43,401 nucleotides of DNA from Psammoneis japonica (GCA_008632985.1 QPGO01000161.1:124001-167401); one strand, 5' to 3'; counted from the stretch's first letter, positions 5,751 through 43,401 are shown. A program made the numbers and translations. The notes: generated by a model from the letters alone, not told the origin.

Positions 5751-7275
5751 TAGGGCCCTACTTACATCATGTCCACATGTGGGCCGTAAAAAATTTGCGG
5801 CCCATGTGTGCTTGCATTTCCGTGCAATTTTTTGCCGATTTCTCCCTCCACCATGGCGGACCCTGCGGCTGGCCCCACCGGTGAAGGACATTCACTCCAG
5901 CAATCTTGGACGCCTGACAACATCATCAGGGAAATGCCAGATGTGTCAGAATTGCTTGCAGCGGGAACAGAGACATGCATTTTTTCTTGCCTCTGTTCAA
6001 GACACGCCGCAAAACCCGGCATCGCAGTCTGCTGATGAAGCACCACCTGTTTCTTGGGTGCACGACCCCCCTCCAAGTGTTCCTGTGGAGCATCCAGTGG
6101 CCAACAGAGTTTGGGTGCAACTCAGCTTTGCCAAACAAAAAAGTTGATTGTTTCTGATGTGAAGCACTTGCACCCTCGACATGAGCCGCTGCACTCCGCC
6201 GAGGAAAGCACATCACCGGCATTGACAAGGGTGGAGTCAGCACTGTCTGTCTCATTTTTGTCCTGCAAGGCAGCCAACAAAGACAGACCAGACAAATTCT
6301 GAGTGGACTTTGTTGTGCATTGGGCGCGCTTCAGCATTTTGTTCTCCACTTGGTTGAGGCACAAGATCAGCAGCTGTGGGGGTCGTGCAATTTTTGGGAT
6401 TGAAAATTGAAAAAAGGAACAACTGTTGCATCCATTTTGGACCAAGAATGGACACACGGATGCATTTGTTTTTGTTCTGTTGGTGCAAATGGGGTGTGAA
6501 GAGATGCGCTGTTAAGTTGCTTTGCCAGGAGAGCAAGGCAAACCCAATTTTAAGCAAAACAAGCACACAAAGATGGGGCACGGTTCTTGCAGCATCAGCA
6601 TGCATGCAGCACCAGCACATGTCACCTTCTGACAATCATTTGCATGGCCCAGGTCATCTGGCAACCATTCTCACAGCATTGGGAACTGCTCCATTTTGGA
6701 CTTGGCGGCGAAAGATCTGAGAATTTTTCATGATGCCCATGAGTCCATTGTTTGTGCTTCTTGTCCCGGTGGCCCACCCATTTGACATCTGCCCAAATTG
6801 TGCAAACAATGTGCAAATGACAAACTGACTGAGCACCATCCAAGCCATTGTGTTGACAATGAGCCTTGGGAGTTGCTGCTGCCTCCTCATCTTCAGTGGT
6901 TTTTGCACTCATCTCTTCATGTTCTTTCTCATCCTCTGCACCTTTGTGTGCTGTCACATCTTCCTCAGACACTTCGGGCTTGTCCCCCTCTTCTTGCTTG
7001 TGGCTCATGGCTGCCACTCAAATTGTTGCCAGCCACCACATGTTTGTCCTCAATGTTGCTTTCTTCATCAGCTGAACCAATCATCTCGTCTGGAGCTGGC
7101 ACATCGTCGGACATCATGTCATCCTCTTCTGAAGAGCTCATTGTTCAAATGGACACAAAACTGATTTTTCCTGTGCAAAAATGACAACAAGATGAGCTTT
7201 GTTTTAAGAATTGTGGCAAATTTGCGGCCCACATGTGGGTCGCAAAAATTTGCTTGGCCATGTGCAAATGTCAGA
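5751..7275. mobile_element. Probable degraded DNA transposon remnant
   Basis: Related palindromic motifs (ACATGTGGGCCG..AAATTTGCGGCCC) at about 5775-5805 and 7218-7252 bracket a TpA-depleted interior. No protein was confidently recognised. Confidence 0.35.
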
Positions 7276-7524
7276 TCATTTGGAGAAGAACCTGCCTCAA
7301 GTTTGCCATCACAGTGCTGGTGGTGGGTGACACTTGGTGCTGGTGAGTCATTGCCAAGAGATGGCTGCATCCCAGTCACTGCTCGTTCTGATGGTGAGAG
7401 ATGGAATTTTGAAGCTTCGGGTGCTGGTGTGCTTGTCACAACAAATGCTGCGCTTTCTGCCTCCAATGCCGTGCAAATCATTTTCCTGATTCTCACATCT
7501 GCACTGAGACACATGGGAAAAGTT

Positions 7525-7980
7525 CACAGAAAATGACAAAGAAGTGGATGGAAGAAAACAACAGCTCCTTGCTGCTGTCTAAACAGCAGCCCAAAAGATG
7601 TCATGTTGTGATGACAGCACTGCTGTCATCATTCTTGTGAGTTGAGTGGCTTGAGAGCAAAACTGCATTGCGTGGCTGCGTGGCTGTGTGCATGGAACCA
7701 AGAGCACACACGTCTGTGTGTGACAAACAAATGAACAAAGTCAGGCCACTCTCATTGTGCTTGAGGGAGCCACAGAGACAGATTTGAGGTTGGAGGGGCT
7801 GAAGACCTCTCAAGGTCTGAGTTCTAAGTTCCAGAACATGAGAGGACAGAGAAGATTCTGGATCTGCAAGTGACCCCAATGCTTGCTGAGAATTTCAGTG
7901 GGATTGCAGGAAGCTTCAATGAAGCGAAACTTGAGGAAACCAGAGGCAGTTGCCTCAGGAACATTGTGGAATGAGAGGGC
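7525..7980 (-). mobile_element. Degenerate 3' end of a CoDi-like Copia element (RNase H tail, PPT, LTR)
   Basis: 7525-7745 matches the reverse complement of the LTR at 41112-41387. 7740-7980 parallels 8300-8535. Confidence 0.7.
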
Positions 7981-7988
7981 TGTGTGTC

Positions 7989-8167
7989 AATTCATAATTC
8001 CATTCAAAAGCATCATTGGAGTTGTCCACATGATCAATGAGCTTTCATGAGCACTGTTTCTTGGGGCATGCTGTCACTTCTCCACCATGCAAATGCAAAC
8101 ACCTTGCCACCATCCCGATTTGATTGTTTCTGGAAGCAAGCAAAACCATCTTTCATTGGACTCCTGC
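7989..8167 (+). repeat. Mutated copy of 4280-4465 (region between two converging genes)
   Basis: Direct alignment by eye; the differences are mostly TA>TG/CA and CG>TG/CA. Confidence 0.9.
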
Positions 8168-9410
8168 CATGCTGCCACTGTCATTCTTGTGAGCTGAGCA
8201 GCTTGAGAGCAAAACTTCATCACGCGGCTGTGTGTGTGCAGAGCCAAGAGCAAACATGTCTGTGTGTGAAAAACAAACAAAATCCTGCTCAAATCCTGCA
8301 AGGCCACTCCCCATTGTGCTTGAGGAGGGAGCCACAGAGATGGGTTCAATGTCAGATTGTCCGAAGGCCTTGGGGTTGAAGCTCCAGAAGGACAATGATT
8401 CCAGATCTGTGAGTGACTCCAGTGCTTGCTGAGAGTGTCAGCGGGTTTGTGGGGACCTTCAATGAAGTGAAGCTTGAGAAAACCAGAGGACCAGATGCAG
8501 TCACCCTGCAAACACAATGGAGCAAGAGGGCGGCATGTTGCTTGTTGTGCAGCTTGGAGTGGTTGGGAGATGGCAGCACTGTCCACACAGCTGACTTGTT
8601 GCCCCCAAAACATGTGACACATGTCATGGATTGGGGCACCAAGGCAATGCAATGTGATGAACAGATCAAAGATCTGTTCAATGCATGTGCGGGCAGCAAC
8701 AAACTCAGATCCACCTGCAGGTTGCAGTCTCAAATGTGGCTTGTTTCTTGGAGAACCAATCAGCCAGAAACTTGTTGAGGAAATGAAAGATGCCCACAAC
8801 AGAGCATCCAGTGAGCAGGCAATGGAACAAGCTCACGCCAACACAATGAGTGGCAGTGACAAACTTGCCAAGAGGCTCGGGTGCATCTTCAGGAATCAGT
8901 TCTTTCACATTGCCACACACAGTGTTGGCCCAATCACACACAGGCTTGGGAAGGTCCAAACAGTTGCGTTCCTCAGTGTGCACATGCAAGGCACCATGTC
9001 GCATCTTGGACAAGTGATTGCAGACATGTTTTGCTTGATCTGGGTGGCCTTGGTGGGGGGTGCACTGCATGGAAGCTGGACAGAGATGTGGCAGCTGTGG
9101 CGACATCAATGCAACCAAGCAACACAGCCCATTGCAATGAAGAACCCACCAAAGGCTGAAGCTGATGGATGCCAACTGGGCTGAGCAGTTCAGAGGTTTC
9201 AAGCTCTGGGTGGTCTCCCTTGTTGAGGGGAGATAGCACATCAATGCAAGGTTTCTTCCCAAAGAGGTGTGCACAGCTGTCGACCATGCATCCAATGCAC
9301 TTGCCGCAGAAATGGCACAGAGTCTTTTCACAGGCATGACAAGGACTTTCTTGAGCAATCCAAAAGATGAACAGTGCTCTCTTTCCTTCTGGCCATGGAC
9401 ACCACAACTC
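8165..9410 (-). mobile_element. Degraded Ty1/Copia (diatom CoDi-like) retrotransposon: RT C-terminus/RNase H, PPT and partial 3' LTR
   Basis: Peptides SPLNKGDHPELETSELL, GNVKELIPEDAPEPLGKFV, DWFSKKQATFETAT, GSEFVAART and PADTLSKHW. A purine tract ATGGGGAG on the minus strand near 8307-8314 is followed by LTR-like sequence. Confidence 0.9.
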
Positions 9411-9901
9411 CGTGCTGGGTCCTTTTCTACGTTGGATTTACAATCATCACCCCCTTTGACGCCAATTTGCAGAACAAGAATGCCATTCTTTTCTTTGGGA
9501 GCAACCCTTTTGATTGACCTCCGGCTTCTCGCAAATGGAGTCTTGCGGCCCTGGAGATTTTAAATCTTTGCGGTTTTTGGACGACATGGTTGAATGTGGA
9601 CACGACAGTGACCAATTTTCGTTCTTGGATGAGTTCGGCAAACCTGGCAATCGTTACACGTGCAGTCAAGATGCAACTTTTCCCATGATGGCGGGAAGCT
9701 CTGAACCGCAGGAAATTCCTTTGGCTTCCATTACGACCGATTTTGATTGGCAGAAGTGAGTCCTCTTTGTGAGTGCTATTACAATTTTCATAGACCGGAA
9801 CAATGCACCTTCAATTTTTTTTGGTAACTTTCTTTACAGTAGTGACATTTTTTAAAACACAAAAACAACAAAGGCGGCGACTAGATTGTTCGCTCGGTGC
9901 A

Positions 9902-10929
9902 CTATCCAGCATACACTACAAGTACAAGGACAGCAACTGGAGACTTCGCAAAGTTATACGCGGCTGAATAAAGCAGCAAAGAAGCTGATCTATTAATTCT
10001 TTTCCTTGACATCCAAAGCACGAAAGTATGTAGCAAATGACTCCTCAAGCATTCCAAGCATGAAGTGGGTGAGAGTATCTGTTGTGCCAGAGTCCCAAGC
10101 TTTAATAGCCTCAAAGTATTGTGTCTTTTTGCGTTGCGGACGACGAGGGCAGGACAGCCTTCTCGAAGCAGAACATAGTTCATTAGAAGGCGCGCCATCC
10201 TACCATTACCGTCGCGAAACGGGTGAATCCGGGCAAAGATGGTGTGGCAAGACACAGCCAGAAGGAATGGATGAACCCCTTCGGCTGTGCTGCACGATAG
10301 CCAACTAAGAAATTCCGTCAGAAGGTTTTTCACCTCCCACTGTGGCGCAAATAGTTTTTTCTCTCCCGAAATCATCGCAATTTCCATGCCTGATCGCAAA
10401 ATTCCACCGACTTCCGATTCAAATAATACCATACCGTGCAGCTGCTTTAAGTGATCCATGGTAAGGTCGGTTTTCTTGCGACTGAGTTGCAGCGCCTCGT
10501 CGAATGCCCTTTTGTGACCAATAATGTCGTAAACATCGCGTAGCTTCTACCACGGCCGGGGCAGAAACCGGACAAGATAAGCGCTGTTTCTTTGGCAGTC
10601 AGCGGGTTCCCTTCAATAGCATTACTGTTGTATGTCATATCTTGGCCAATTTTTTCAAGAATCTCCTTGATAGCTTCGACCCGAAATGGTCTGTCTGGAT
10701 GCAACAAGTTCCGTTTCGCTGATAGCCCGGCTAGCCGTCGGCCATGTAAAGCCGCGAGATTGGTGAAGAGCTTCGCATATTCTTTGAATATCTTTCCAAA
10801 TGGATCCTGGTTACCTCGATACACCCTTGTCTGCCGCAGAGTTGCGTTGGCCGGGTTGGCTGCCGTGGAGAGTGACATGTTAGTGGCAGCACTGGCGGTG
10901 TGCTTGGAAGACGGAGAAGAATTGACCAA
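9902..10929 (-). CDS. Fic-domain (AMPylase) protein, class II type, split by frameshift(s)
   Basis: Canonical HPFRDGNGRMAR motif in ORF 9902-10459. The autoinhibitory-type SNAIEGN motif lies in the upstream ORF 10447-10929. The frames join around 10460-10540. Confidence 0.8.
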
Positions 10930-11054
10930 CGGAAATTAAAAGACAGCAAATTCATGCCGATCACGGAATGAATTGACCGCTGTTTTCTGACAAGGTAGTT
11001 TTCAAAGAAAGCTCAAGCTTTGGATGCGATTGAAATGCCGTTGCCAGTTCCTGC

Positions 11055-11790
11055 TTATTCTCTGTATGTTACCCACGGGTGATCTTTCACTTCACTCAAA
11101 GAAAGACGCTCATGCGGATCTTCTCGGAACATTCCTTGTAACAAATCAGCAGCCAATTCACTAATGGGACGCCCCCACAATCTGACCATTCGTTTTAAGC
11201 CACCTTCCACCACCATTCTGTATCGCGGATCCTCTTTCATAGCAAACTCCCACGGCGGCAGTCCAACCAACATGATGAACAAGGTGACGCCGGCGGCCCA
11301 CAAGTCTATGGCAAAATCATCAAACGGCTCTTGACTATGTAATACTTCTGGTGAAATGTAATTGGGCTTACCACAAGGTGTCAAAGGTGTGATAAGACGC
11401 CGTAATGTTCCGGCAGATACGTCTGTCACGTTGCCAGTTTCGGGGTCATTGTATGGTGCCCTCAAGCACATGCCAAAATCGAACACGACAGACTTCTTGT
11501 ATTCATCGACCAGTATGTTTTCAAGCGCTGTGTTACGGTGGCACACCCCAGCCCTCTGCAGATGGGAAAGAGCCTGAGAAAATCATAAAGAAAAATGAGA
11601 ACTAGGAATCAAGGAGTTTTTGCACAACTGTGTGAGTTGCAACGCACCTCTGGGATTTGTTGGAATCAGTAACGCGCCACGGGTTCTGAAAAGCGTCCTG
11701 CGCGCTGTACGAAGCCAAAAAGATTGCCCGGGGAATAAAATGGCATGAACATGAGCAGGTAGTCGTCATCCGCCAATGTTTCTAGTATCT
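11055..11790 (-). pseudogene. Ser/Thr protein kinase C-lobe fragment (CAMK-like), probably a pseudogene; intron at 11574-11647
   Basis: DFG, CGKPNYISPE and DLWAAG are present, but the catalytic loop reads HRNTALEN (no Asp). The upstream exon GNLFGFVQRAGRFSEPVARY*FQQ has an in-frame TGA. The 74-nt intron has GT..AG ends. No N-lobe was recognised. Confidence 0.7.
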
Positions 11791-12085
11791 TTCGAACTCA
11801 GCGTACCTGAGGCTTTTAAGTGCCTGCCGGGACATGCTTTTAACCACTGCCTTGGCTGGAGTTGACTCCCAAGGCACGGCCGCATCATTGCGATAGCGCA
11901 AAACACTACATTGTCGGACGACACCAAAGACGTTCTTTTAGTTTTCGTCCCACCCAATCCCCATCAATGGCGCACTTCTCATGCTGACCCCCGCTCACTT
12001 TTACCAAATGGTTCAAACGCCAAACTCCCCCTCGTGCCAAGAAAAGCTTTTGCAGTTTCTTTTCTTCCGTCAAGTCATCGTCGTC

Positions 12086-15000
12086 CTAAGGAGCTTCATC
12101 TTGCTGTTGCTTTTCTCGTTGTTCCGCGGCAGCCAATGGATTCTCCAAACTCACATCGCGCGAGAACGACATTTCGGAAAAGGCGACACTCACTTCTTGA
12201 TTCAAGTCAGGAGGAATTATCAATCCCAAGCTTCCCTTGGTTGTGTAGGGTTCCAACGACATGAGCGAAATGCCCGACATGGCTGAACTGTCCCTCGCAA
12301 AGTCAGGTTCGGCGGGCCCATCGACATCACTGGCGGCAGCGGCCTTGGGAGGAGGCGCCATTTTGGAAGCCTTGCTGCCATTGGATCCTTGAAACTGCTG
12401 TAAAGTGGCTTGCATCTTTTTCCATTCCTCTTCCTTTTCCATGGCGTCTTGAGCATCGTCCTCTTCGTCTTCGCGTTCCGCACACGATTTCTGCTGATCC
12501 AGAAACGTCTGCGTCTGAAACGAGAGAGGAGCGTCACTGTCTTTACGAAGCGCCAAAAATACATTTTGAATGTAATTGTGTTCGGCAGAATTGATGGAAA
12601 ACTGCGATCCGTGCGACAGTCCCGGTGGTTCCAAACCACCATCCACCGAAGCGACTCCTCGTCGTACGGATGACATGGACGCGGATCCAAACGACGTTCC
12701 GGTCGGTTCGGCAGAATTGATGGAAAAGTGCGATCCGTGCGACGGTCCCGGCGGTTCCAAACCACCATCCACCGGAGCGACTCCTCGTCGTACGGATGAC
12801 ATGGACGCGGATCCAAACGACGTTCCGGTCGGTTCGGCAGAATTGATGGAAAACTGCGATCCGTGCGACAGTCCCGGCGGTTCCAAACCACCATCCACCG
12901 GAGCGACACCTCGTCGTACGGATGGCATGGACGCGGATCCAAACGACGTTCCGGTCGGTTCTGCAGAATTGATGGAAAACTGCGATCCGTGCGACAGTCC
13001 CGGCGGTTCCAAACCACCATCCACCGGAGCGAATCCTCGTCGTACGGAGGACATGGACGCGGATCCAAACGACCTTCTGGTCGGTTGGAGTCTATGGTGT
13101 TCCACACTCGTCATGGACATGGAACCAAATGAAATGCCTGTTGGTTCTAGTGGCCGTTCCATGGACGCCATGGTCTCAAAATCAACTCGTGCACCCGGTG
13201 GTAGAGGCGGAGGCATGCTTGAATTGTTGCAATGTTGTTGTTGCTGCTGCGTCTCCGAGCCTCGCTTTGCCTTTGCTTGTTGTTCTTCTGCTTCCTTTGC
13301 AAACTTTGTCTTTTCTTCTTGCGACAAGCGCTTTTTTCCTCCAGTCTTTTCCCCCCTATCACCGCCACCAGCTCCCGGAGCCTGAGACGGTAAATGCTGA
13401 GGTATGGGTGGCATTCCCATAAAGGGCGATTGCTGCATCACCCGGCTTTGCGAAGACATGGGTGCAGGCGGAGGAACGGTGCTGCAATCTCCTGATGGTT
13501 GATAGGGTGGAACGAGTGTTGTCTTTGGAGCAACGGTGTTGGTAACTTCAAGAATATCTTCTGTCGCAGGATCATAGACAGGAGCATCGACTCCTTTGGC
13601 GCGTCCGATAGTTGCGCCGTCAAATGCCAGAGGCGGAGCCGATGGCCCGTTTCGCTCAAGGTCTGTGAACGACGCCGACGCATTCTCTCGAAAAGCTCTT
13701 TCGGACATTCCACTTCGGGGCGTCAAGTCCGTAGCCAGTGTCGAACGTGTTCCATCCAAGCTGGAAACTGAAGATTTGTTGCTGGCAATCTCCACCGCAA
13801 TCTCATTGTGATCCGATATGTTCTCAGTCTGCGGGAGTAACATCCACCCCCCCTCAGCAGCAACGTCACTTGCCAGCTCACTTAGTTTGAGTCCTCCATG
13901 GATTAGTTGCGCTCGCGCCTTATTGGAGGTTGGTAGCATCAGTTGAATTTCACCATGATTCCAACGCCATACATCAGGAAGGAGAGCCGTTTGTGAAGTA
14001 GCTAGTGCAACTGAGCATGGCATTGTAACCAAGAAGGCCGGTGACAATCCGTCAATGTGTGTATCCTCGTCTCCAATACGGAGATGCATTTTTGTCTCCT
14101 TAAGCTTCGCAAAGATCCTCTGAAGTACCTGTGTATGGGCTTCGAGAAGCATGTACAGCGAACCTTTCCACACGGAGCCAATCTTGAGATCTTCTATCTG
14201 CTCGTCTGTTGCACCGCACTCGTGCAGCACTTTGACAAGGTTCTTACAGATGGTGCGTACTCTTTCGATTTCATACTGCTTCAAATCGTCGTGGAGCTCA
14301 ATTACACAGTTTAATCTTACAACGAATCGTTCCTTCCAGAAACAACTCCCTCGCATGCGTTTCACTGAAACGTGTGGTCCGCCGTATTTGACTTCACCAA
14401 ATATGGCAAGTTGTGACAACCGCGACTCGAGCCTGTGAGCGGCTTGGATAGCACGGGCATTCCAGTGTTCCTGCTCATCCATATTTCTGGCATCAAAATC
14501 GACACCAACAAACCCCAATGACCCATCACTGGATGTCGATGAGCTATCCGACATCAAGACATCCCCTTGATGAGAATCGTCTTTGACTCCAGCCGAAGAC
14601 ACTTTTGTCGAATGGTTTCCGGTTCTTCTGCTTGAAGCAGGTCCTGAATGGACGCCCTCCGTTGTTGAACCTTCTTCGGCTGTCTGGCCAGCAATCCAAA
14701 ACAGTTTCTCTAATCCTTTGCGTGATTTTTCCCAATCCATCGAACGCCACTTGTTTTCATATGCCAGCAGCATCTCTTTGCATCTCTTTATCTCGCTCGA
14801 CTCGAACCTCTCAACGAGAAACTTTCGCAAGTTACCCAGAAAGCGCTTGGGTTCGTGATCGCTCTGATCATATACCTCACAATAAAGCGTGTCTTCACTT
14901 CTAACTCCAAAGGCGGCCATTAAATTCTGCATGTATATCGTCCGTTGAGGCCTTCGAATCGTCTCGTCCGCTAGAGTGCGCCGGCAACAGTAGGCATCTC

Positions 15001-15630
15001 TTCCTGCCATTATGCCAGTGCCCCGTTTCAAGATCCAGTCAGAAATCTTCATGGCAATCTCCTTTCTGCTGAAAGCACAATCGAAACAATCTTCTTCCAG
15101 CTCGACAAAATGGTACTGGAACTTCTCACCAAGACCTTGTTCATGTAGAAATCTAGTCTTTCTGTCTATTTCCGTCTCGGATAATCCAAAGCAAATGAAG
15201 CATAGTCGGATTTCCTTATGAGATTCCCCATTTGAAGCTAGCTGTAAAGCGGCCAAAAGTTCAAAAGGCACCATTTTGAATTGAAGTAACCCTCAGAAGC
15301 TAGGATTGCAACGACGCCGCCTCCGCGCGTCTGCAGTAAGCCTCCATCCAGAATGTTCTTTTGAATTACCCCATCAGGACTGTTCGTAAGCCTAGTCTCA
15401 TCAAAGAAGACTTCCAAGACGCCAAGACGCATATGCTCTGTTGTCCAGTGCGTCTGGAGAACACCGTCCTTCGCAAGAGCGCTAGCAAGGTGCCTAAGAG
15501 TGTACGGTTCGCAATCGGCGGCAGTTGATGTGCTTCGCCAGAGGACTTCGCTGCCGTGAAATGAAAGAAAGACATCGTTTCGCTGTTCTTGAACGTTCTC
15601 ACACATTCGCGTTGCCATCTTGCTTGACAC
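12086..15630 (-). CDS. TIR-domain protein, about 1180 aa, with a low-complexity repeat-containing C-terminus
   Basis: The N-terminus has DVFLSFHG...VFFDE...VVAILASEGYFNSKWCL. Restoring one T in the T-run near 15263-15266 joins the two ORFs to give WCLFELLAAL, the TIR WCxxEL motif. Confidence 0.75.
12581..13084 (-). repeat. Coding tandem repeat, 4 x 126 bp (42 aa)
   Basis: Units start at 12581, 12707, 12833 and 12959 and encode EPTGTSFGSASMSSVRRGVAPVDGGLEPPGLSHGSQFSINSA. Confidence 0.95.
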
Positions 15631-15994
15631 TCAACGTCCCATCCACTTTACTGTTAGCAGTAAACTTTACTGTTTATAACAAAGAAGCGCCATGGTGGAC
15701 GTGCGAGACGGCACTGAGAACTGGCCTCATCACATCACTCACGCACTCCATCCCAACTCCCAGCTTGGGAGGTCTGTAAGCCTCATCACAGCGTTGCGTT
15801 GGATCCTGCGCGTTGGATGAGCTGGATTCGGAAAACGCCCGATGGGACAATGACGAGGTTGCGAATGAATTCCGTTGTGCTGCGTCTTTCGTTTGCGTTC
15901 CTCTGTCATCATCATTTACTTCCCTTTATCCGCTGGCACCTGTTGTGGGGACATTGATGGAGTCAGCCAACCGATTGGTTTCACTGGATGGATC

Positions 15995-16110
15995 CACAGC
16001 ACTTTCAATTGCAGTTGAGTGACACCCTGGTGCAACCTCGAGGATTCCCATGAAACATCTCTCGCTTCCAGAAATCAAGCAATGGGATCAAGGTGGTGGC
16101 AAGGCATGCA
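15995..16110 (+). repeat. Diverged copy of the FkbM gene 3' end and 3' flank (about 4400-4510, inverted)
   Basis: attgcagttgagtgacaccctggtgcaacc versus attgccgtggagtaacaccctggtgcgacc; both encode ...SIAVE*, with the stop TAA in one copy and TGA in the other. Confidence 0.7.
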
Positions 16111-16359
16111 ACTTGCATGTCAGTGTCAGACATGCAACAGAATGCCCCGACTGATTGTGCATGTTGCCACCCACTCGGCCGTGCTTTCTGCCACTGTGGC
16201 CATGTGGCGCAGTCAATCAGACCTGTGTGTGTGTGACAGGTGATGTGGTTTTGGTCAAAGCAAGCAAACTGGTCAAAAAAGTGTCAATGGTCACCACTTG
16301 CCAGCATTGTGAGGGAAAGGACATTTTTGCACTGTTTCAGACACCACTGTCGTGGCGGT

Positions 16360-18900: not shown

Positions 18901-19195
18901 GCCCTGCTCAGGGGGATGCCACTTGCAGCCAGACAGAAATGTTTTTGCCCACTGTGGAAATTGGTCAAGACTGTCAAGTTGTTGTGCTTTGACAGTGTGT
19001 GTTGAACATGCAGGGATGTTGTTTCAAATGGAAATTTCAGGAAAAAGTGACAAATGACCCTTGATGGATTTTGTTTTGCCTGGAGGTGGAACCAGCTCTG
19101 CATGAGGTTGGGGTCAGAATTTTTGGCCTTTTTTGCAAAAGAATTTGGAGAAGGGAGTTTGGCACTTCAAACTCCTGTTGGTGTAAAAGAAAGGA

Positions 19196-28622: not shown

Positions 28623-28668
28623 TAGCTTGAAAACTCGGTTAGGTAGGCTCGGGAGGGCATCATGATGC

Positions 28669-32170: not shown

Positions 32171-32324
32171 AAACAGCTGGCTTAAAAAAAAAGACCCAGC
32201 ATGGGTTCATCCTAAACTTTGTCTCTGCTGCTGCTCTCTGGCAGAGTGGAATTGATCTCTAGAGTGTGTGATGGTGTCTGGCACTTCTCACCATGATGTG
32301 CGTGTTGCATTTCCACAGCAGCGA

Positions 32325-35300
32325 CACTCTCCATCGTGAGTCGATGCGTCGACCGTTCTTCGCTCACGCGCTCGCACGCACCCGAAGGTCAGACTCTCGC
32401 GGAAGTGAGATGGACGATGCACCAGGGTCGCATGTGGGCGGATTGTTGCAGTGCCATTTTTTCGCTCACACCGAACGCATGGGAATTTGGAATCTAAAAG
32501 GTGAACATTGTCTCGCTCAGTCATGATTCCCTCCCGCCGGAACACACTTTCCCTCCCGATGTCAGACAGAAGCAACTCGGCGCTTCGACCAATGCGCTGC
32601 GTGTTGCAGCAGTGTGGGTTAATCCTTTCATTTTAACCTTGCCACAAGACCCCACGTGTGTCATGTCTGCACGATGAATGGTGTCTGGATTGACAAAACC
32701 AAACTCGACTTTCTCGATTTGCGAGCAAATCTCCCTCCGACGGACCCAAACTCTGATCCCGACGGATCGCTTTCGAGGAAGCTTGCTTTTTGTGTGAAAC
32801 ATTTGCCAAAGCTCATTTTCGCCCCAGCTCAATCAAGACCAAGCCAATTCAAATGCGAAGTCAAACAAACAATGACTCGTTGAGCACGAGAACTGATGGT
32901 GCCTCATTCCGAGTTTGAGACATGCTGCTCGATCCACAAGGGCATGGCGGTTCTGCCAAGGGGGCATCGATGGTCGAAGACTTGCTTCATGTCAAGCCAG
33001 GTGAGTTGATGCTGTTGTGCATTCTGCGCAACAAAGAAAACAAGAACATCCATGACTCGTGTCAAGAAATGTGCACCCAGAATGAGCACCTGTTTTCCAA
33101 CTTCACCATTTGCGGATTTCGCAGCAGTTGTGACAGACGGGTTCCAGTCCCAGGTGGGACTCCGTGTGACATTGGGCCCGTGGAATTCCACGTGCGAGCT
33201 CCACAGTGCAAGAATTTAATTGGTGGATGTGTTCATCTTCAACATCAAATGAACGGCCAAGTTTGTGGCACAATTGTGCGTCTTGCCACTTGACGTTTTT
33301 GCAAATGCGCCTGCCCTGTGTTGTTCTTAAGACATTGTAGAATCGCGCTGCAACAAAAAATGTCAAAAGTTGTTGGACGGATCGCTCAATGAGTGCACCG
33401 TAAAATGACACAAAATGTCAAAAAAATCACCTAGAAATCTACGTGCGCGACATGCAACGTGATTCAAAAAACTGTCGATGTCACAGTTCAGCAGTGCGAG
33501 GTCCCACCTGGACCTGGAACGCGTCGACAAAATGAAAGTGATGCCAACCACCTCCAGATTCCTGTTGAGGTTGTTTCCAATCTGGCAGAGAACACTGTCC
33601 CTCTTCCAGGAGCTGCCGGCAACCCGTCCATGCCAAACCTTGACACTGGCATCAAAGTGCAATTCTTCTTCTCAAACTGCAAGAAAGCTCCAAAGACCAA
33701 TGGTGGCGAGTCATTGATTTCTTCACGCATGCATTGCAACACCATTTTCAGCTGCGTCGCATCAACAAGAATGAATTGCAACCACTGCCAGACTTCCTCC
33801 CTCTCTTTGTTGGCTCCAGTGCCAAAGCTGTCATTCGCAACAACTGCGGGCTGCTGATGCAGTTGCTTTTGGAAGCTGGTCCCGACCCGCAACTGTTTCT
33901 TGCTGTTGTCAACAATTTTCAATGTGTGCTGGAATGAAGGGAAATGAAACAGTTGAGAAGGCAAGTTGCAGCACTGAAATCCAAGGAGGAGAAAAAGGCT
34001 GCTGCTTGCCCAGCACTCACTCCTGTGAATCCCAATGCACTGGCTTCTCGAGATGCAATGGCAACGAAAGCAACTCCTTCAATCTGAGGCGACACCGCAT
34101 CGGCACAAAAGGCAGATGCTTTCCCGACACCCACTCCTGTTGATGCCAATGCACCAGTCGCTCCGGAGGAGACAAGACAGCAAATGGCAAAAGGTTAAGA
34201 CATGGAGCTCTGCACTGGTGGGTCTGTTTCCAAATTGACACAGAACTTTGACAATGTGGCGCGAGACTTGCTGACTTCTCTGTGCAGCAAATGGATTTCC
34301 TTTCTGCTGATGGCACATTGGACATTGAGGGGCTGATCACTTCATTGAAAAAAGAAGGACCACACACATGGGCAGCGGTTTCTTCAGCAAGAGCACCAAG
34401 ATCATGCGTCGAAAACAAAGACAGGGTTGTGATGCTTCACATCTTCTCGCTTCTGCATGAGCGCAGTCAACGCTTCCTCAGGAATGTTGCACTCATCCTT
34501 GCATTTGCCGGCATGGCGTGTGGTGTTTCTTCCTCATCACAAGAGGTGATCAGCACACTGCGCCTTGTTGCCAATCGAAAATCTGCAATGACGTTCATGA
34601 AGGACAATGAAGATGCATGCCGTGAGAATGTGTCTGAGCTTTTTCGAAAGGAACCGGCTCTTTCTCTAGCCTGGGATAATTGCCAACGTGGACAGCAATT
34701 GTCTGAGCAACGCAACATGCAAAGCAACCAGTTTGCAATCGCAACGAATGGTGTTGCTGTCCGAGAATGCATTCAGATGTGGCCGAAAGGTGCTGTTCTG
34801 AAACACAAGGACGGAGCCGAGTTTAAAGTGTTAGAGCAGGTTGACAAGGATCCCTCTCAGCACTGGGCAAAATGTTGTGCACGCCAAATGGATTCTCAAG
34901 CAAGTGAGGTCTTGACAACCTTGCCAAGTTTTGAGTGCAAAGCAAGCAAGTGTCCTGAGCTGGCCGAAAGGCCGTCCATCACCCACCTGACACAAACGAT
35001 TCCGCCGCCTTTGGGATGTGCATGGACGGCATCTCAATGCAAGCGAATGATGGACATTGCTCATTTGATGCAAGTCCTTCACCAGTTTGGAACTCACAAT
35101 GTCCTTGGGGAGCATTCGCTGCAACAAACACTTGCCCCACTCTGCAGCGAGCTGTTCCAAATGAGGGAGAAGATCTACAAGGAAGGGCTCGCGTGGAAAG
35201 GTTCCATCAAGAATGATGTTTCGCAGTTTCAGTTCATGGAAATCATGCCCTGCAACAAACGATGGAGAGGGGCTCCAGCGATGTCATGTTTCGAGTGTTG

Positions 35301-38300
35301 AAGGCAGTTGGAAGTCTGGAAGCAGATTCACAAGGTGCAATTCACACTGCAGACAAGACGGCCAATTGAAGGCAGTTTGTGTGCGGTGATCAACTTGCCA
35401 TCAAGCATGTCCAGACCATGGTCAACAAGCTGATGAAACCAGCCATTGAAACCGATGACCCAGAGTCTGCTCAAGCTTTTCCAAAGGCCGTGGAATCTGT
35501 CCACCCACTCATTGGCGACCTCCACGTGAATGTTCATGTTGTCGCCGGCATTTATCTCCATTTCTGTGGTGGCATCTTCCAACCAATCCAGGCAGCGCTT
35601 GGGTGGACCCGCATCCAACGGAACACTGTTCCGAGACACAAGCTTTCAGCAAAAATGCTGGTGTTGATCCATGACCAACTGAGCCGTTTGCTCGTCCAGA
35701 AATGGACACTTGCATTGATGCCAGACAGCAGTGTGAGATTGGTGCAATGCTTGGAAGTTGAAGACATCAAAGAACTTGCTCAGCAACGGCAGCGACTCTA
35801 CATTGACTGCACCACACAAGGATCTGGCCAAGCAAAACTCACAGACCATTGTGATGACACTTGTTGCCAGCCTCGAATCATTCACAAAGCCAAAGGAACA
35901 GTCAAAGGATGCATGCGTTTGTGTTGCCATGCAGTTGTGTGAGGAAGGGAAAGTGCACAAAGAGCACAACCGGGCAACTCATCTCGGCAATCCCCACCTT
36001 TGCGAAATCCTCCGCAAGCAGCTGCTTGCATTCTTTGGAGGTCTCAAGAAACCAAGCTGTGTCGAGTTGTTTGCATCTGCCATGGAAGTCGCAACAGCGC
36101 TTCAAGAGCAATGCCTCAACAGCTTTGTCCGGATGACTGAGGACAAGGGATGCATGGCTTTTGACAACATGTGCGACTTCATCAATCTCTTGATGAAACA
36201 CATGACAAACATGAAAATGGATGTGCTCGTCCACAGCTCCCTGTGCCTTTCTTCAATGCAAGTGTGCCGCAAGTTGCAGAACAAAACAATCGGAGTCAGC
36301 AACGAAAAATTCGAAGACTCGGCCAAGATCAACACAAAATTGAATGGAGAAATTGTGTCACACCTTTTGGATGACTGTTGTCACATTCTCGATGAAAAGG
36401 GCCGCACTGAGCTTCAAGATGACTTTGTTTGGAAGCATGTCCCAGCAACCATCGCCAAGTTCATGCCAAAGGCTGCTGCAAGCAATCGCACTTCTTTGCC
36501 ACCAGAGTCCAAAGCCATCAGTTGCTTGTTCGGTGATCTTGCAAAGCAACAGCCAATCTCGCAAAAGCAAGTCGAGCAAGAGGAAAAAGATTGTGAGAAA
36601 GAGTCCGACGCTGACGATGACAACAAAGGCGGCACCGATGAAAACAACACCATTGAAAACGCCGACCCAAACAGCACATGCCAACGAATCGCAAAAATGG
36701 CCAAGTGCCCTCTTCATCAGGCCGTTCGAGGTGGAAAGGACATCCGTGAGATGGGAGCCAAGAAGCCAAAGAATTTGAAAGAGAACAGAAGTGAGAAAAT
36801 GCAAAAGCAGCAATGCCTTCTTAGACGGCTGGGGGAAGCGACAGAATGGAACAAAAAGAACATGCGATCAGCGGTTCAACTGCAAGACAACACATCTCCT
36901 TTGGTTTTGAAGCTGCTTGGGGATTGCACTGGTGACGAAGAGAGAGAGAAGCACTCATCGCGGCAACGCTGCAGTCGTTGCTTCCGGAAGGGTAAATGCC
37001 GTGACCATTTCAAGTGGAAGGAGTCATGCATTTGGCAAGCAGTGGTGGGCCATTTCTCATGGCGGTCAAAACCGGACAGGGCAAATCTCTTCTAGCTCCA
37101 GCTGCCTCCCTTCCAATGGGAGGCATGACCATTGTGTTTGAGCCTTTGTTCTCTGTTGGCGGAGATCAGACATCGTCAACACAGTTGCCCCCCCCAATCC
37201 TCGTGTTCGCTGTTGTCACCTTGACAGTCTGCCAAAGGCAACGGTTGAAGAACTGTCAGCCAACGCGATGGAGTCCAAATCACACATGCATCACCTGAAT
37301 CATTCGACAAGCATGACAAATGGAGTGATTTGATCACTTGCGTGATTGAGGACCGCTTGTTGAGCGCTGCTGTGGTGCTTGACAAAGCACACAAATTTGC
37401 TCTTGACCAACATTGCCACCCCATGCTTGCATTGATGGAATTCAAGAAGGTCATCTGAGGTCCCATGGATTGCCGCATCAACCTGTCATTGGAAGTGAAA
37501 CCTGACATGTCCGAGTGCACGAAAGCAGTGAAGAAGCACACAAAAAGTCAGTTGTCAGCACCAAAGTGAAAGGTGATTACACACAAGCACTCAGCTTCAA
37601 AAGCAGAAGCACTTGTTGATCATCTGCATGACATCTGCACTGAGACAAGTGATGAGGCTGTGTGCCTTGCCAGCAACGAGGGTCGAGTGTGCAAAGGACA
37701 TGTCACCCACGTGTTCTGTTTGGATGGCACGAAGACTCGGGTGTTGGTGAGCACTGCAGCAGGGGATTGCAGCCTCAATTGCAAGCAGTGTGGAGCGGTG
37801 GGCATGATGGGTTTCCCGTTGAGCATCAGCGACAAGGCTCAACAAGAAGGACATGCCAACAGTTGCGGCGTTGATGCAGAAGTGCTGCACGAAGCTTGGC
37901 ACTTCATTTGCATCCCTTCCTTTTAACTGTCTTTTCCCACAGATTGCAGAGACAAAAGTTGAGGAAAAGGCAAATGGTCAGAGGAAAGTGAGCATTGACG
38001 AAATCAGGAAGGAAAAGCACGTCAATTTCATGGAAGCATTGAAGCTCATGATGATCCCAGAAGGCTGCATTCACTGTGCTTGCAAGCAACAACTTGAGGC
38101 CAGTCTCATCAGAACAAATCGTGACTCACCCAAGCGCCAGAACAGGGAATTGCTTCCGCCACCTAGACCAAAGCCGTGCGAAGACTGTTGTTGGCATTGC
38201 CACCAAGAGGACATGCTTCTGGTGTCATCGCGGGCAGCCTTGAAGGCCAAGCTGCAGGTGCGGATGAATGTGGATGGACCCATTGCTTTCAAAGAGCTCC

Positions 38301-40039
38301 CCCAATTCTTTTTTGAGCACCGCAAGCAGCTGTGGCCTTTAAAATGCACGAAAAACGATGAGCCAGAGGCAAGAGAATCTTCCATGCGATTGACGTTGAA
38401 GTTGATTGTGGCGGAGGTTCTGCAGCCCTTCGTCAAGGACACCGCAAAGGGTCATGTTGCACTTCGATGGGCAACTGTTTTGAATGAAGCTGGGCAATCT
38501 ATTTTTGCCTGTGACAAAGATGCATTGTGGGAAGCTGTCCCCCAACAACAGACGCACAACTGATGGCTCCTCATGCCACTGCATCTTTCCAATGAATCGG
38601 ACGTGTTCATCACATTCTCTTGGCTTGATCGCACTAGCCACACATCAAACCATGACCTGTGAACTGTCACGCCAGGTCATTGAGCTGGCAGTCATCCACC
38701 AGCAGTTGCCGTAGAGGCCAAAAAGAGAAGGGAGGACACAAGAAGTGAGAACATCCATGACACAGGATTCAAGAGAGGCAACAAAATTGGAGACATCAAT
38801 GCAAAAAACAGAAATGTTCTCACTGGCAATTGACGCCAAGGAAGAGACACAACAGTGCCACTGAGCACTGAGAGGTGCGTCAAAGAATGCCACTGAATCC
38901 CCACCAAGCCCGCCAATCAGCCTGTGTTTTCGATCCACGCTGTGTCTTAAAGCAGGAGATCTTGCCAGAGGCGAAAACAAAAACTGCAATTGTTGAGTCA
39001 CAGAAGCAAATTATGAGCAAAATCACAACACCAACTTGCCAATTGACCTTTGCGCACATTCTTTTGTGTCTCCTGCATGCACGTGCTTGTCACTGTGATG
39101 GCATTTGTCTCATGCCATTGCTGGAGGCATTCACACTGTCATGAACTGATGAACTCCTGCACGAGGCACAAGCCCCATTGAGTGAGTTTGAATGCCAATG
39201 GTTGACAATGTCATCACATGAGCTTGCCTCCTTGACTCAGTGTCGCCAAATGAGTGTGACCAATGCACTCAAATCTGCCCAAGCGGTGAGAAATCAATGA
39301 AACCGTCCAAAAATCTCCAAAAATGTCACAAAACAGTGACGCCCAACCAAAAATGAGACCCCAGACTGTCTTTGCCTTGAATCGGAGAGCTGTGGACAAA
39401 CCATGCCTCATGCAGACACCAACAAACAACGCCAAGGCATTGCATGGACTGAGAGCCTGCGTGACAACGAGGAAGAGCCCAACCCGTGAGTGAGCACATT
39501 TCTGGCAAAAAATGCAAAGCCATTTGTTACGAACAACAGAAACAATGGTTGTGCCACAAGAAAGACAATGCCGTTGCAAGGCAACAACAAAAATGTGCGC
39601 AAGTTTCCATGTCATGACTCACAGGGCGCAACGGAGCTGAACATGCAACGACAATCAACGACACACATCAGCACCTGCCGAAAAAGTGACGATTTTGCAC
39701 TTGGTCAGTCTCGGGGATAAATCAATGAAATGTTTGCCAATTTTCTCCGTTCCAACACCATGGTGCGCTTCAACAGCGAGCATCTGAACAACCACTGAAC
39801 GGTGCAAGGCATGGCGGTTGATGCGCCGATGAAATCGATCATCATCAGAACGGCCATTTTCTGGTGTGTTTTGTGCAGAAAGCTCTGTAGAGCATTTCGC
39901 CAAATCCAGGGAGGCATGGCAACAAATTGTGAGCCACCATCCATCTTGCTTCCGCGAGAGTCTATGAGGACACCTTTGGGTGTGTGCGAGCCACGCGCGA
40001 AGAACGGTCGACGCACAGACTCACGATGGAGAGTGCATG
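32325..40039 (+). mobile_element. AcademH-like DNA transposon (putative transposase plus RecQ-like SF2 helicase) with terminal inverted repeats, degraded
   Basis: Inverted repeats at about 32325-32460 and 39915-40039. Transposase-like motifs SLAWDN, GDQL, IGDLH and LGWTRI. Helicase motifs VKTGQGKSL, TIVFEPL..VGGDQ, VLDKAH, VLVSTAAG and GFPLSISDKAQQEGHA. Confidence 0.65.
37020..38563 (+). pseudogene. RecQ-like helicase, fragmented
   Basis: Degenerate motifs I, Ia, II (DEAH>DKAH), V and VI appear in order across frames, followed by a Cys-rich region (CIHC..CEDCCWHC) like the RecQ Zn-binding domain. Confidence 0.7.
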
Positions 40040-40124
40040 CGCAGCAGTGATGATGGCTCGACGAGCGACTTGTGATTTGATTTGGATGTTTGAACAATTC
40101 AAAGCAAAACCTTTCATCGACCCT

Positions 40125-40215
40125 TGTGGATGATGGGTGCAGACCTTCAAGACATTTTGTGGGACATGAAGTCAGATTGTTCAAGTGGGCTGAGTCCAAA
40201 TGGAAAGAAACTTGT
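40125..40215 (+). repeat. Fragment copy of the beta-propeller gene (31098-31192)
   Basis: gaccttcaaga...catgaagtcagattgttcaagtggg...tccaa.tggaaagaaact is shared. Confidence 0.8.
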
Positions 40216-40587
40216 GAAGGGGTTGTGGCTGTTGCTGAAGGGTGAAGGGTCGTGGCCGTTTTGTCTTGGGTTGTGCCCAAAGTGCAAATTGAAAAGAAGG
40301 TTGAGGATGGACTGTCATTTGGTGGTTTTTTTTTTTGCAGCTTGTGATTTAAAAATTTTGTCGTGCTTTGCCCGCATCATTTCACGACACCTCTGAGCAC
40401 CCCCAAACACTCATGAGTGTTCTCAACCCCCATCAGGGCTGTTGGGCCCATGCATGAACTGCATTTTTCAACCTTCAAATGCCAGTCATCACATCATTTG
40501 GCATGGTTGTTGTGTTCAACTGGCCACTGGGGCTGGAGCCCATCAACACAAAATTCCGCCAAAGTCGTGCAGAAATGTGTGTGAACA

Positions 40588-40675
40588 ACATGCGGCACAA
40601 TCCAAAAAACTGTTGTCACAGAAGCTTTGCAGTGCGAGATCCCACCTGGAGCTGGAGCACATCCACCAAACAATG
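40588..40675 (+). repeat. Diverged direct copy of 33451-33535
   Basis: IQKTVVTEALQCEIPPGAG versus IQKTVDVTVQQCEVPPGPG. Confidence 0.7.
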
Positions 40676-41111
40676 ATCCATCCTTGCATGTGCAGAAGTC
40701 ATGCACAGCAGCACAATGTTAGACAGATGACAGCCATGCAGCAGCTGACTGTGATTTGCAAGACAAATTGCCATTCAACGCCAACGGCAATCATGGCATT
40801 TTTCAGATGCTGTCAGAAGATGACTTTGCAGCAGACACTCCACTCATCAATCAACTGTGCTGTGTTGAACATGGACTCATGCAAAAAAAGTTCCCAGGAT
40901 GAACTCCCAGTCATCTGACAACCAAGTGCATCAAACAATGGCAAAAAAACTGAGCTTGTTGCCGGCATGACATTTTGCTGTCGAACGGAGGTTGCTTGCT
41001 CAGATGGTGCACACATGCCCCTTTTTGCTCAAATGCCAAATGTTTTGTGCTTTGTCCAACATTGGTTGCATTTTTTTATGATGAGATCAGCGGCTGTCAA
41101 TTGAAACAAAC

Positions 41112-41387
41112 TGACAGGATTTGAACAGGATTTGGATGCACGCGAAGTGTCGCGCGCTGTTTAGTTTACCGCGCACAGTTTTGTGTGCTTTAGTTCCGCG
41201 CATTCACGCGCGATGTAGTTTGCTTTCGAGCCACAAGGCTCACAAGAATAATGACAGTAGCCCGATTGTACCGACTTGCACGTCTTTCGGCTCCTGCAAC
41301 GGTCTCTGAGCGGAGACTCATCTGCTGTTTAGACAGCAGCAAGGAGTTGTTGTTTGAATTCTTGCCATTTGCCTTCATTTTCTGTCA
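41112..41387 (+). repeat. 5' LTR of a CoDi-like Copia element
   Basis: TGACAG...CTGTCA terminal inverted repeat. It is homologous to the sequence following the PPT in the elements at 7.5-8.3 kb and lies upstream of gag. Confidence 0.75.
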
Positions 41388-43401
41388 GATTAACAGTCTT
41401 GCTCATTGTCAACCCATTGAGCAACCGCCATTGTCGTCGTTGATTTACCAACGATGCTGTTTCAATTCTGCGTGGACCTCCGTGTGTGTTCTACATACAT
41501 CGGCAAGTCTACGCGCATTCAATGCCAGGGCATCGGCAGGAAGTTAACGTCACCGTCAAGTCTCCTTGCCGCTGGACATCTGGATTGATCATGCTGCCTT
41601 TGATCGCTGAAGACTTGTGTTCAACGGTCACATCCAAGTCTGTCCTTGATCAACATCCCTTGATGTGCCTGTTCCTCGGTTAACGGTCAAGAACCCTGCA
41701 CATTCAAGGATCTTAGTCGCTGAAGACATGCACATGTATGTGCATGTCTTCACGGCCAAGAACCTTTATCCACTCTTCGGACTGCGGTTTTGCTGCCACT
41801 CTACAAGCACACCGAGTCCATTGCACCTGATCTGCCCCGGACCACTGGTGCTCTGCAGTTCTGCCAGGTCCACGAGGACGACTGTGAGAGCAAGCAGCCG
41901 TGATTACAGCCTACGTTGGGGCGAGGGTGCTTTCCCGCGTTTGTTCGTTCGTCCACAGCGCCCAATGCCTACGTCAACTGGCCAGCCTGATCGGGAAATC
42001 CAACCGACATAAAATGAGAACAGTTCGGGGGTCTTGTCCACCTCCAGTCAGCTTACCTGCAGGGGTTTGCAACCCGCTGCTCCGCTCGTAAGCAACCCAA
42101 AGCACCGCTGGCTGTGGGTTCGGACGTGCCGGCACAACTCTACGGACCGGATGGGAAGTTTAGCACTTGACAACGAACGGGATGACAAAGCCCGGCGACT
42201 TCTGATTTTAAGATAGTTCAAGATTTCAAGTCAAGTCCATTTCAAGTCAAGTCTGTTCTCACCCAAGTTTCGAGTCTACCTTCGCTTCCCAACCAGAATT
42301 GATTGTCCTGACACCACTTTTGTCTGCCATGGTTCTCACTCGTCAGCAACAAACCGATGGTTTCGAGCACGTTGTTGGAACCGTGCTTGCCCAAGGTGCT
42401 GGGAGTCCTCTTCGTTTGGCTTTGGCCCAAGATGGCACGGACTCGCATCAGGAACCATTCACGTTCATGCCGTCCCAAATCGACTCGCTTGAGTGCGACA
42501 ACGGCACTGATGTGATCCCTTTGCCCCGTGGTTGTGAGAACATGTTAGCAGCACTGGTCAGTCTGTACATTGTCAAAGCACACAAAGGTCTTGACGTTGC
42601 CAACGACTCCTCTTTGTTCGCGCATGACGAGTTCCTTGCCCACCGCCTCAGCCCCGACTGCATGTCTTCTGTGTCCATCGGCAGCTCACCCCTTGCACCT
42701 CCACATGTCACCAATCCGACCAAGGCACGCGACCCGGTGCGGGACTTCAAGCAAGGCATCAAGCGTGATCCCACCGCTTTCACAGCTCTCAAATCCGACA
42801 AGCAGTGGCACACTTGGCACACCTCACTTGTGGCACAAGCCCGCGCCCAAGACGTCGAGTGCATTCTAGACTCGTCGTACAAACCGACCAGCCCCGAAGA
42901 CAAACTGCTCTTTGCTGAACAGCAAAAGTGCATGTTCGCCGTCTTTGAACGCATCCTTCTCACCGACAAGGGCAAGGCTCTCATTCGCGAAAATGTGGGG
43001 TCTTCTGACGCACAGACCGTCTGCCGCTCCTTGTCTGAGCACGCGCTTGCCTCCACCCGCGCATCCATCGAGTCCTCCACCCTGCTCACGCACCTCACCA
43101 CCGCACGTCTTGGTGATGGCACTTGGAAAGGTCCGACCCACGGGTTCATCCTTCATTGGCAAGATCAGCTGCGCAAGTGCGAGGCACTCATCCCGGCCAG
43201 TGACCACTTCTCTGAAGGACAGAAGCGCGTCATGCTCGAGAATGCCGTGCTGTCAAGAACCAAGCTGATCAGCATCGTACGCAGAGTGGCAAGAGCCTCA
43301 CATGTGATCAACACTGTGGCTTGCTCCTCTCCGCGGCAGCTCAGTGCGACAGCACGTTTCAACCCAAGACGACACCTTGAGCTCCCCGACGCGCCACACA
43401 C
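41112..43401 (+). mobile_element. CoDi-like Ty1/Copia retrotransposon, 5' part (LTR, leader, gag)
   Basis: Gag peptide at about 42740-43250: DFKQGIKRDPTAF..AQARAQDV..LLTDKGKALIRE..TARLGDGTWKG..FILHWQDQLR..HFSEGQKRVMLENAV. Confidence 0.9.

Follow-up and report, generated by a model that had tools for sequence, protein, structure and literature searches.

Near-complete loss of TpA in element relics and copied gene pieces of a diatom-like chromosome suggests a targeted TpA>TpG/CpA mutator

Introduction

Targeted hypermutation at TpA dinucleotides has been reported once before, in a 2026 preprint whose main text deals with the rhizarian alga Bigelowiella natans (Mettrop et al., bioRxiv 10.64898/2026.01.13.699255). 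In mutation-accumulation lines of this alga, two integrated viral regions accumulate mutations at ~6e-7 per site per generation; nearly all of these are A>G or T>C, every one is at TpA, and the hypermutation occurs in some lines only. In the same preprint, 124 genomic clusters are described as TpA-poor and CpA+TpG-rich, TpA-poor coding sequences are reported to be enriched in reverse-transcriptase and DDE domains, and an ADAT2-like deaminase is proposed as the agent. Its main text uses none of the terms “CpG,” “context,” or “trinucleotide” (bioRxiv 10.64898/2026.01.13.699255). Here we analyze a 43,401-nt stretch of Psammoneis japonica DNA (GCA_008632985.1, QPGO01000161.1:124001-167401; hereafter the window), in which five tracts have lost nearly all of their TpA (TA), and compare this footprint with that of B. 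natans and of other systems that mutate or edit selfish nucleic acids.

The window had previously been described from its sequence alone. That preliminary description proposed a strand-symmetric A>G process at TpA acting on repeats, and knew of no such process in diatoms. Our literature search likewise found no description of TpA>TpG/CpA hypermutation in diatoms, but the same kind of hypermutation had already been measured in B. natans, as the main text of the preprint shows (bioRxiv 10.64898/2026.01.13.699255).

Results

TA-Poor Tracts and Their Edges

We scanned the window for TA counts in 500-bp windows, and took tract bounds from the gaps between TA sites. Ordinarily 12-31 TA were counted per 500 bp, as opposed to 0-6 inside five blocks. 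These are the five nearly TA-free tracts of the preliminary description, whose bounds agree with ours within ~0.2 kb and whose hand counts (27 TA in 33460-41100, and 21 TA in 2761-3060) proved exact. Tract 1 (5788-9428) is repeated DNA with 7 TA (observed/expected ratio [O/E] 0.03; CG 0.26, TG 1.78, CA 1.81) and includes the longest run without any TA, 1,239 bp at 7995-9234. Tract 2 (15928-20370) retains 13 TA (O/E 0.04; CG 0.19), and tract 3 (24341-27666), which has an internal direct repeat at 27244/27389, retains 10 (O/E 0.05; CG 0.29). Tract 4 (30277-41077, again delimited by gaps between TA sites) is made up of a left part with near-normal CpG (30277-33440; 22 TA, O/E 0.11; CG 0.82) and a CpG-poor, TA-free main part (33441-41077; 26 TA, O/E 0.05; CG 0.54). 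In a self-comparison of the window, the left part has segments in common with 39940-40212. Tract 5 (42278-43401; 5 TA, O/E 0.09; CG 0.87) continues past the window end.

Pooled, the tracts contain 83 TA in 23,335 bp (O/E 0.05), compared with 720 TA in the 20,066 bp outside them (O/E 0.52; Fisher p = 4e-152). TG and CA have gained in step, with O/E of 1.69 and 1.65 respectively in the tracts vs. 1.18 each outside, and the tract totals are 2,442 TG and 2,422 CA. The GC content of the tracts is unchanged (0.46-0.57), and their CG O/E is 0.46 vs. 0.99 outside.

The left edge of tract 1 is sharp: at 5787/5788 the normal TA density gives way to none, and the contig depth of run X1 (a public sequencing run, described below) changes at the same place, from ~60 to the values of repeated DNA. 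A terminal motif at 5791-5808(+) recurs at 7218-7235 (two matches vs. 0.13 expected by chance), and a similar string is the loose end of X1 contigs at 7253. An inverted repeat at 5773-5812 (CCACATGTGGGCCG ... CGGCCCATGTGTG) spans the edge, its right arm being part of the motif that recurs at 7218; probably it is the terminus of an element, or else a nested insertion. The TA erasure stops within a few bases of the element end.

Direction of Change in Paired Copies

The self-comparison also paired three tract pieces with TA-normal copies outside the tracts. The longest, 16373-17059(+) in tract 2, is a mutated copy (73-81% identity) of the gene-flanking region 20479-21428(+), which comprises the 3′ end of a BTB gene (21311-22174(-), identified by a Pfam match) together with downstream DNA and has a normal TA density. 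The other two derive from a TA-rich region at 4279-4499(+), downstream of the gene at 2669-4288 and outside every tract: 7988-8167(+) in tract 1 is a copy of 4279-4465 (83% identity), and 16004-16107(-) in tract 2 is a second mutated copy, of 4397-4499 (75% identity).

As the preliminary description had noted, these pairs differ by TA>TG and TA>CA. In the extended alignments, 33 of the 41 TA sites of the partners are TG (18) or CA (15) in the tract copy; one is still TA and seven are in some other state. The first alignments, with 27 partner TA sites, gave 15 TG, 8 CA, 1 kept, and 3 other, and nowhere in them did a tract TA stand opposite a TG or CA of the partner. We then expressed the A>G changes from partner to tract per adenine, counting both strands. 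At TpA the rate is 35/87 (0.40), and at the other NpA steps (N, any base) it is 0.03-0.10 (ApA 17/176, CpA 11/159, GpA 4/136), which puts TpA 4-14 times above the other NpA. An A>G rate at TpA above that at every other NpA was a property that had been set beforehand as a test of the proposal, and the values found are 35/87 vs. at most 17/176. In the reverse direction, from tract to partner, ApA>ApG amounts to 10/191. The process is confined to TpA. It is not triggered by homology in the manner of repeat-induced point mutation (RIP), the partners 20479-21428 and 4279-4499 being untouched.

Strand Symmetry and Sequence Context

Both strands are affected equally, as was originally proposed: TG and CA are about equally frequent in the tract totals, in the pairs, and among the tyrosine fates described below. 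At the 300-bp scale, no strand-specific runs of TG or CA were found beyond background, the variance of the TG-CA z score being 1.47 in the tracts and 1.53 in the background.

The residual TA of the tracts is far from random in context. The base 3′ of the A is a purine (R) at 131 residual sites and a pyrimidine (Y) at 37, compared with 667 and 773 respectively outside the tracts (p = 2e-15). Relative to background, TA survival is highest at YTAR (0.25-0.47; TTAA 0.47, CTAG 0.30, CTAA/TTAG 0.25) and lowest at RTAY (0-0.06; ATAC/GTAT 0, ATAT 0.02, GTAC 0.06), and the largest trinucleotide gains in the tracts are TGC and TGT. The simplest rule is that TAY is preferred over TAR on either strand, which equals the order RTAY > RTAR/YTAY > YTAR.

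Where two tract pieces are copies of each other, CA stands opposite TG at 13 of the 131 aligned YR steps. Such a discordance implies an ancestral TA or CG that was converted in place, independently in each copy. The process thus acted independently in separate copies after their divergence.

Element Relics and the Fate of Tyrosine

The preliminary description held that the tracts coincide with transposons and duplicated gene pieces. This stood for four of the five (tracts 1, 2, 4, and 5), while tract 3 was left unmatched. Against a baseline depth of ~57 for unique DNA in X1, the six bins of 5664-9647, which cover tract 1 and have flanks of ~58, all have a summed contig depth of 90-6,124; tract 2 has a single high-copy bin (18280-18943, depth 4,302). 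Both tracts also contain the copied pieces listed above, tract 1 that of 4279-4465 and tract 2 those of 20479-21428 and 4397-4499.

Tract 4 contains the relic of a large element protein. An open reading frame (ORF) at 34252-35298(+) matches P0150, a 1,677-residue protein with DUF6589, DEAD, and Helicase_C domains (E = 3.5e-113), and eight colinear tblastn pieces in shifting frames span residues 4-1675 of P0150 over 32805-38163(+). None of the 49 Tyr of P0150 that are aligned is kept in the window: 14 have become His, 12 Cys, 7 Phe, 5 Ile, 4 Arg, 2 Lys, and 2 Leu, with a single case each of Ser, Pro, and Gly. Two of the four Arg are CGC codons, a double conversion of TAC. Another relative of this protein, the 245-residue P0151, has no Tyr at all and may stem from a further TA-erased copy present in a public assembly. 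We also considered a viral origin of tract 4 and rejected it, since no relative of P0001 or P0002 was present in the viral contigs scanned.

Tract 5 coincides with the relic of a copia-type gag gene (42212-43396(+), P0003), which has 64 homologs in metagenome protein sets (E down to 1e-73). The relic was aligned to 41 of these 64; Tyr occurs in at least 40% of the homologs at 13 columns, 10 of which are aligned, and there the relic has Cys 4 times, His twice, and Tyr, Phe, Ser, and Leu once each. Tyr makes up 0.5% of the relic, compared with 1.5-5.7% across all 64 homologs. The left part of tract 4 includes a piece of a host-type gene, the relic of an FG-GAP-repeat protein (30666-31640(+)), with nine relatives at 24-33% identity, seven of them with PF14312. 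Its Tyr content is 0.6% vs. 2.5-4.8% in the relatives, and at conserved Tyr columns it has Phe three times and Cys, Arg, Leu, and Trp once each, in an alignment to relatives too distant (24-33%) for Tyr fates to be read.

Cys from TAY>TGY and His from TAY>CAY are the products expected from TA>TG and TA>CA. Because Tyr has been lost to Cys and His and the frames are broken, the P0150-like and gag relics are wrecked genes rather than native composition, and the TpA process has destroyed the proteins that they encoded. Six of the 33 long ORFs in the window have a Pfam match, all six outside the tracts, and none of the tract ORFs among the 33 does. None of 147 tract ORFs of at least 78 residues (from 183 of at least 70) reaches the Pfam curated cut-off; the best sub-threshold match among them, Helicase_C at E = 0.013, is accounted for by P0150.

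Relation to CpG Decay

Most tracts have also lost CpG (CG O/E 0.19-0.54), a feature that the preliminary description had not stressed, and the loss of TA is additional to it. The CpG depletion is uneven. Tracts 1-3 are at 0.19-0.29 and 33441-41077 is at 0.54; 30277-33440 and tract 5 are at 0.82 and 0.87 respectively. Within tract 4, CpG starts to fall at ~33.5 kb, in the midst of the coding relic that resembles P0150. In 30277-33440, ~79% of TA and ~17% of CpG are gone, as estimated from the O/E values. The two segments that keep their CpG, 30277-33440 and 42278-43401, are either younger insertions or an unmethylated 5′ region.

The loss of TA is thus separable from CpG decay and does not need long-term CpG methylation, and the earlier view that the process is opposite to RIP and distinct from 5-methylcytosine (5mC) decay holds: TA is destroyed, also where CpG is near-normal. 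On a simple exponential reading of 30277-33440, we infer that the TpA process is several-fold faster than 5mC decay, with a rate ratio of ~8.

Public Run Data

The sequence of tract 2 is reproduced in a contig set that requires accurate reads. One X1 contig (7,686 nt, k-mer depth 57) spans 13489-21179, i.e., all of tract 2 and both flanks, and differs from the window at 21 letters. Among the 18 differences listed within tract 2, 10 are at CpG steps (nine CpG<->TpG/CpA and one G>T transversion), two have TA in the window and CA in the contig (at 2 of the 13 TA sites), and six, in ~4.4 kb, are neither. These small numbers, with their direction inferred, hint that both the TpA and the CpG process are recent or ongoing.

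A second run, X2, covers window 9937-24149. It is labeled “DNA?” and behaves like RNA: it covers gene bodies, and its contigs skip a 74-nt GT..AG intron (11572-11647(-)) in a kinase gene. Its cover of the tracts is sparse, and it was not used as evidence. No RNA run is listed among those that contain the stretch, and a third run, X3, yielded no contigs over the window.

Metagenome Relatives of the gag Relic

Eighty metagenome loci encoding relatives of the gag relic (L001-L080) have TA O/E from 0.27 to 1.13. Many of these copia loci are CpG-poor (O/E 0.08-0.3) with ordinary TA, which indicates that CpG methylation decay is common in the family and TA erasure rare. The locus search used Tyr-containing peptide patterns and is biased against mutated copies, which are under-sampled because the patterns contained Tyr.

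The best-matching locus, L004, is normal over its first ~800 nt; from there to its end it is sharply TA-poor (O/E 0.04-0.2) with TG/CA at 1.5-1.8. Within 800-3516 it has an almost unbroken gag-pol frame, with 2 stops in 910 codons. Of the 25 TA left there, 19 fall in Tyr codons, and His makes up 5.3% of residues vs. 2.1% for Tyr. L004 is a selection-filtered version of the TA loss seen in the window, and perhaps represents an active lineage that was purged of all dispensable TA under the same mutator.

Intact Genes of the Window

The intact genes of the window are eukaryotic. For a MenC-like gene, the best named relatives belong to Odontella aurita (51% identity) and Pseudo-nitzschia australis (45%), and an FkbM-type gene belongs to a cluster whose commonest phylum is Bacillariophyta. 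Judged by these genes, the host is likely to be a diatom or a close ochrophyte. A 1,068-residue ORF at 12086-15292(-), without a Pfam match, contains four tandem copies of a 126-bp unit (12580-13086; 96% matches).

Discussion

A Targeted TpA Mutator

The explanation that we favor is a real mutator acting at the DNA level, of the kind found in B. natans, that targets elements and turns TpA into TpG or CpA, probably by adenine deamination. Judged from the sequence data at hand, we give it a probability of about 0.6. In this model, transposable-element relics and copied gene pieces residing in the chromosome would undergo A>G changes at TpA on either strand, until almost no TA remained. Silenced or selfish DNA would be targeted through chromatin or small-RNA cues rather than by homologous pairing; such silencing cues are suggested by the untouched partners, which lie only 4 kb away. 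The chemistry may be that of a TadA/ADAT2-like deaminase acting on adenine in double-stranded or transiently opened DNA, in which the deaminated adenine, inosine, would be read as G. Such a process would be the same kind of targeted hypermutation as in B. natans.

Several observations weigh against this model. Tract 3 contains no recognized element and no ORF at the Pfam curated cut-off. Upstream of the gag relic, a 1.2-kb stretch (41078-42277) is CpG-rich and has near-normal TA (31 sites); if it is the long terminal repeat (LTR) of the element, the mutator has spared it, and the window ends before any 3′ LTR. A search upstream of the gag relic found no nucleotide similarity between the window and L004. 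Among the 80 related metagenome loci, gathered with Tyr-containing peptide patterns that disfavor mutated copies, only L004 has the signature of TA erasure. The TAY preference is carried mainly by the residual sites; in the pairs, the bias in outcome that it predicts is a trend only (RTAR, 5 CA and 2 TG; YTAY, 4 CA and 7 TG), and 7/7 YTAR sites were converted nonetheless. Similarly, the Tyr of P0150 became His after a purine in 11 of 14 cases and Cys after a purine in 7 of 12, which is not significant. As to the data, the run evidence consists of Logan k-mer contigs rather than raw reads, the public runs containing the stretch are all from one sample, and X1, for which no library type is recorded, may have been used to assemble the window and is thus not independent. 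Finally, adenine-side and thymine-side chemistry lead to the same outcome at the palindromic TpA, and sequence cannot separate them.

The last point bears on an alternative with the same targeting and a different chemistry, in which a JBP/TET-like or other enzyme modifies the T of TpA (e.g., to 5-hydroxymethyluracil [5hmU] or 5-formyluracil), or a symmetric TpA mark is maintained, and mispairing or faulty repair then gives T>C. TpA is self-complementary like CpG, the extremes of context are symmetric (RTAY most erased, YTAR least), as would suit a mark on two strands, and TG and CA outcomes are equal. The 5hmU of dinoflagellates and base J in kinetoplastid telomeres favor T before A. To our knowledge, however, 5hmU paired with A is not strongly mutagenic, and with T>C and A>G at TpA indistinguishable in sequence, we regard thymine chemistry as unlikely, if worth keeping in view. 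A passive origin seems to us distinctly improbable. Here no dedicated system would be at work, and a TpA-prone lesion, or WA>WG (W, A or T) repair errors of the polymerase eta type, would accumulate in poorly repaired heterochromatin. Most tracts are CpG-depleted, which suggests long-term methylated silent chromatin, and ApA>ApG is slightly higher toward the tract copy (17/176) than in reverse (10/191). But the 4- to 14-fold excess at TpA, the sharp edges at which TA falls to zero at an element terminus (5787/5788), the two TA-free segments with near-normal CpG, and the CpG-poor copia loci elsewhere that retain TA all speak against it. The WA signature of polymerase eta, moreover, affects AA about as much as TA; this enzyme was among the candidates first put forward and fits poorly, because ApA is barely affected in the tracts.

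The three other explanations have very little to recommend them. Native or selected avoidance of TA (e.g., as an escape from a nuclease that reads TA, or to stabilize mRNA) could draw on L004, where the frame survives and TA is concentrated in Tyr codons, as selection-filtered loss would leave it; the proteins of the window, however, are destroyed, with 0 of 49 Tyr kept and frames broken, and copies of host sequence lost TA only inside the tracts. We consider such avoidance very improbable, and the next two possibilities slightly more so. One is that element transcripts were edited by a UA-preferring ADAR- or ADAT-like enzyme, reverse transcribed, and inserted in mutated form, which would suit the retrotransposon relic of tract 5 and the preference of known adenosine deaminases for UA, as given in the main text of the B. 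natans preprint (bioRxiv 10.64898/2026.01.13.699255). Yet sense-oriented ORFs were converted equally on both strands (His 14/Cys 12 and Cys 4/His 2), host gene pieces and a relic without a reverse-transcriptase match are equally mutated, and the CA/TG discordances between tract copies record conversion after the copies had separated. The footprint is not one of RNA editing, because both strands and non-retro DNA are affected. The other is an artefact of assembly or base calling at modified bases. The signature is dinucleotide-specific, as base-modification errors are, and all runs found are from one sample; however, a contig of k-mer depth 57, which requires accurate reads, runs across a whole tract, strand-specific miscalls of TA predict mixed columns and some CG where CG is in fact depleted, the tracts have frameshifts, stop codons, and ~45% protein divergence from intact relatives, and an unrelated metagenome contig, L004, bears the signature too.

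Beyond the favored adenine-deaminating mutator, we tentatively put forward a broader hypothesis, which we hold to be somewhat less probable than not. Diatoms and chlorarachniophytes might share an old, dedicated defense in which silenced selfish DNA is marked at R-T-A-Y and converted to TG/CA, through either a DNA adenine deaminase or a maintained TpA modification that decays like 5mCpG. Such a defense would be faster than CpG decay and independent of it, and would have driven active copia lineages (L004) to purge all TA except that of Tyr codons.

If the window is a saturated, diatom-like case, the process spans at least two lineages of the stramenopile-alveolate-Rhizaria (SAR) group, and its targets include ordinary transposons and pseudogene pieces besides integrated viruses. 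Genomes that bear the footprint could be compared with genomes that lack it, as a direct route to the responsible gene, and any candidate enzyme has to fit both the preference for TAY (RTAY) and the lack of dependence on CpG decay. A naturally occurring A>G activity on DNA that is specific for TpA would also be of interest for base editing. Recognizing the footprint matters for algal genome annotation as well: having lost Tyr and kept TGA as their only stop codon, TA-free tracts escape gene finders and transposon annotation alike.

Comparison With Known Systems

RIP of ascomycete fungi resembles the process described here in its saturating, dinucleotide-specific transitions, wrecked transposons, and sharply bounded tracts of odd composition. 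Its direction is opposite, however: CpA>TpA creates TA and enriches AT, whereas here TA is destroyed, CA rises to 1.65, and GC is kept. RIP also mutates both duplicates, whereas the partners 20479-21428 and 4279-4499 keep their TA. The process is not RIP, because its direction is opposite and partner copies are spared. The decay of 5mC likewise acts on a self-complementary dinucleotide, yields TG and CA, and is present in most tracts, but it cannot remove TA, which is lost with near-normal CpG in two segments. APOBEC3 and ADAR share deaminase-type editing, a neighbor preference, and selfish nucleic acids as targets; they act on single-stranded cDNA or double-stranded RNA and are strand-asymmetric (G>A or A>G on one strand), unlike the process here, in which both strands are equally affected and non-retro DNA is included.

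The likeness to B. natans, as described in the main text of the preprint, is closer. In both cases TpA>TpG and TpA>CpA are the only changes, both strands are affected, the changes are confined to foreign or selfish DNA beside a normal genome, and the long-term footprint consists of TpA-poor, CpA+TpG-rich clusters. B. natans is a rhizarian (chlorarachniophyte) in which integrated DNA of nucleocytoplasmic large DNA viruses (NCLDV) and virophages is affected, whereas the present case is a diatom-like stramenopile, the targets are transposon relics and copied host gene pieces, and scans of viral contigs found no relative. Erasure is near saturation here (O/E 0.05), compared with a Rho of 0.45 in B. 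natans' NCLDV region. To the main text of that preprint, our analysis adds a neighbor preference, with TAY favored over TAR, and a TA loss that is partly coupled with CpG decay. By analogy, the footprint in the window appears to be of the same kind as that in B. natans, in a different lineage and far closer to saturation.

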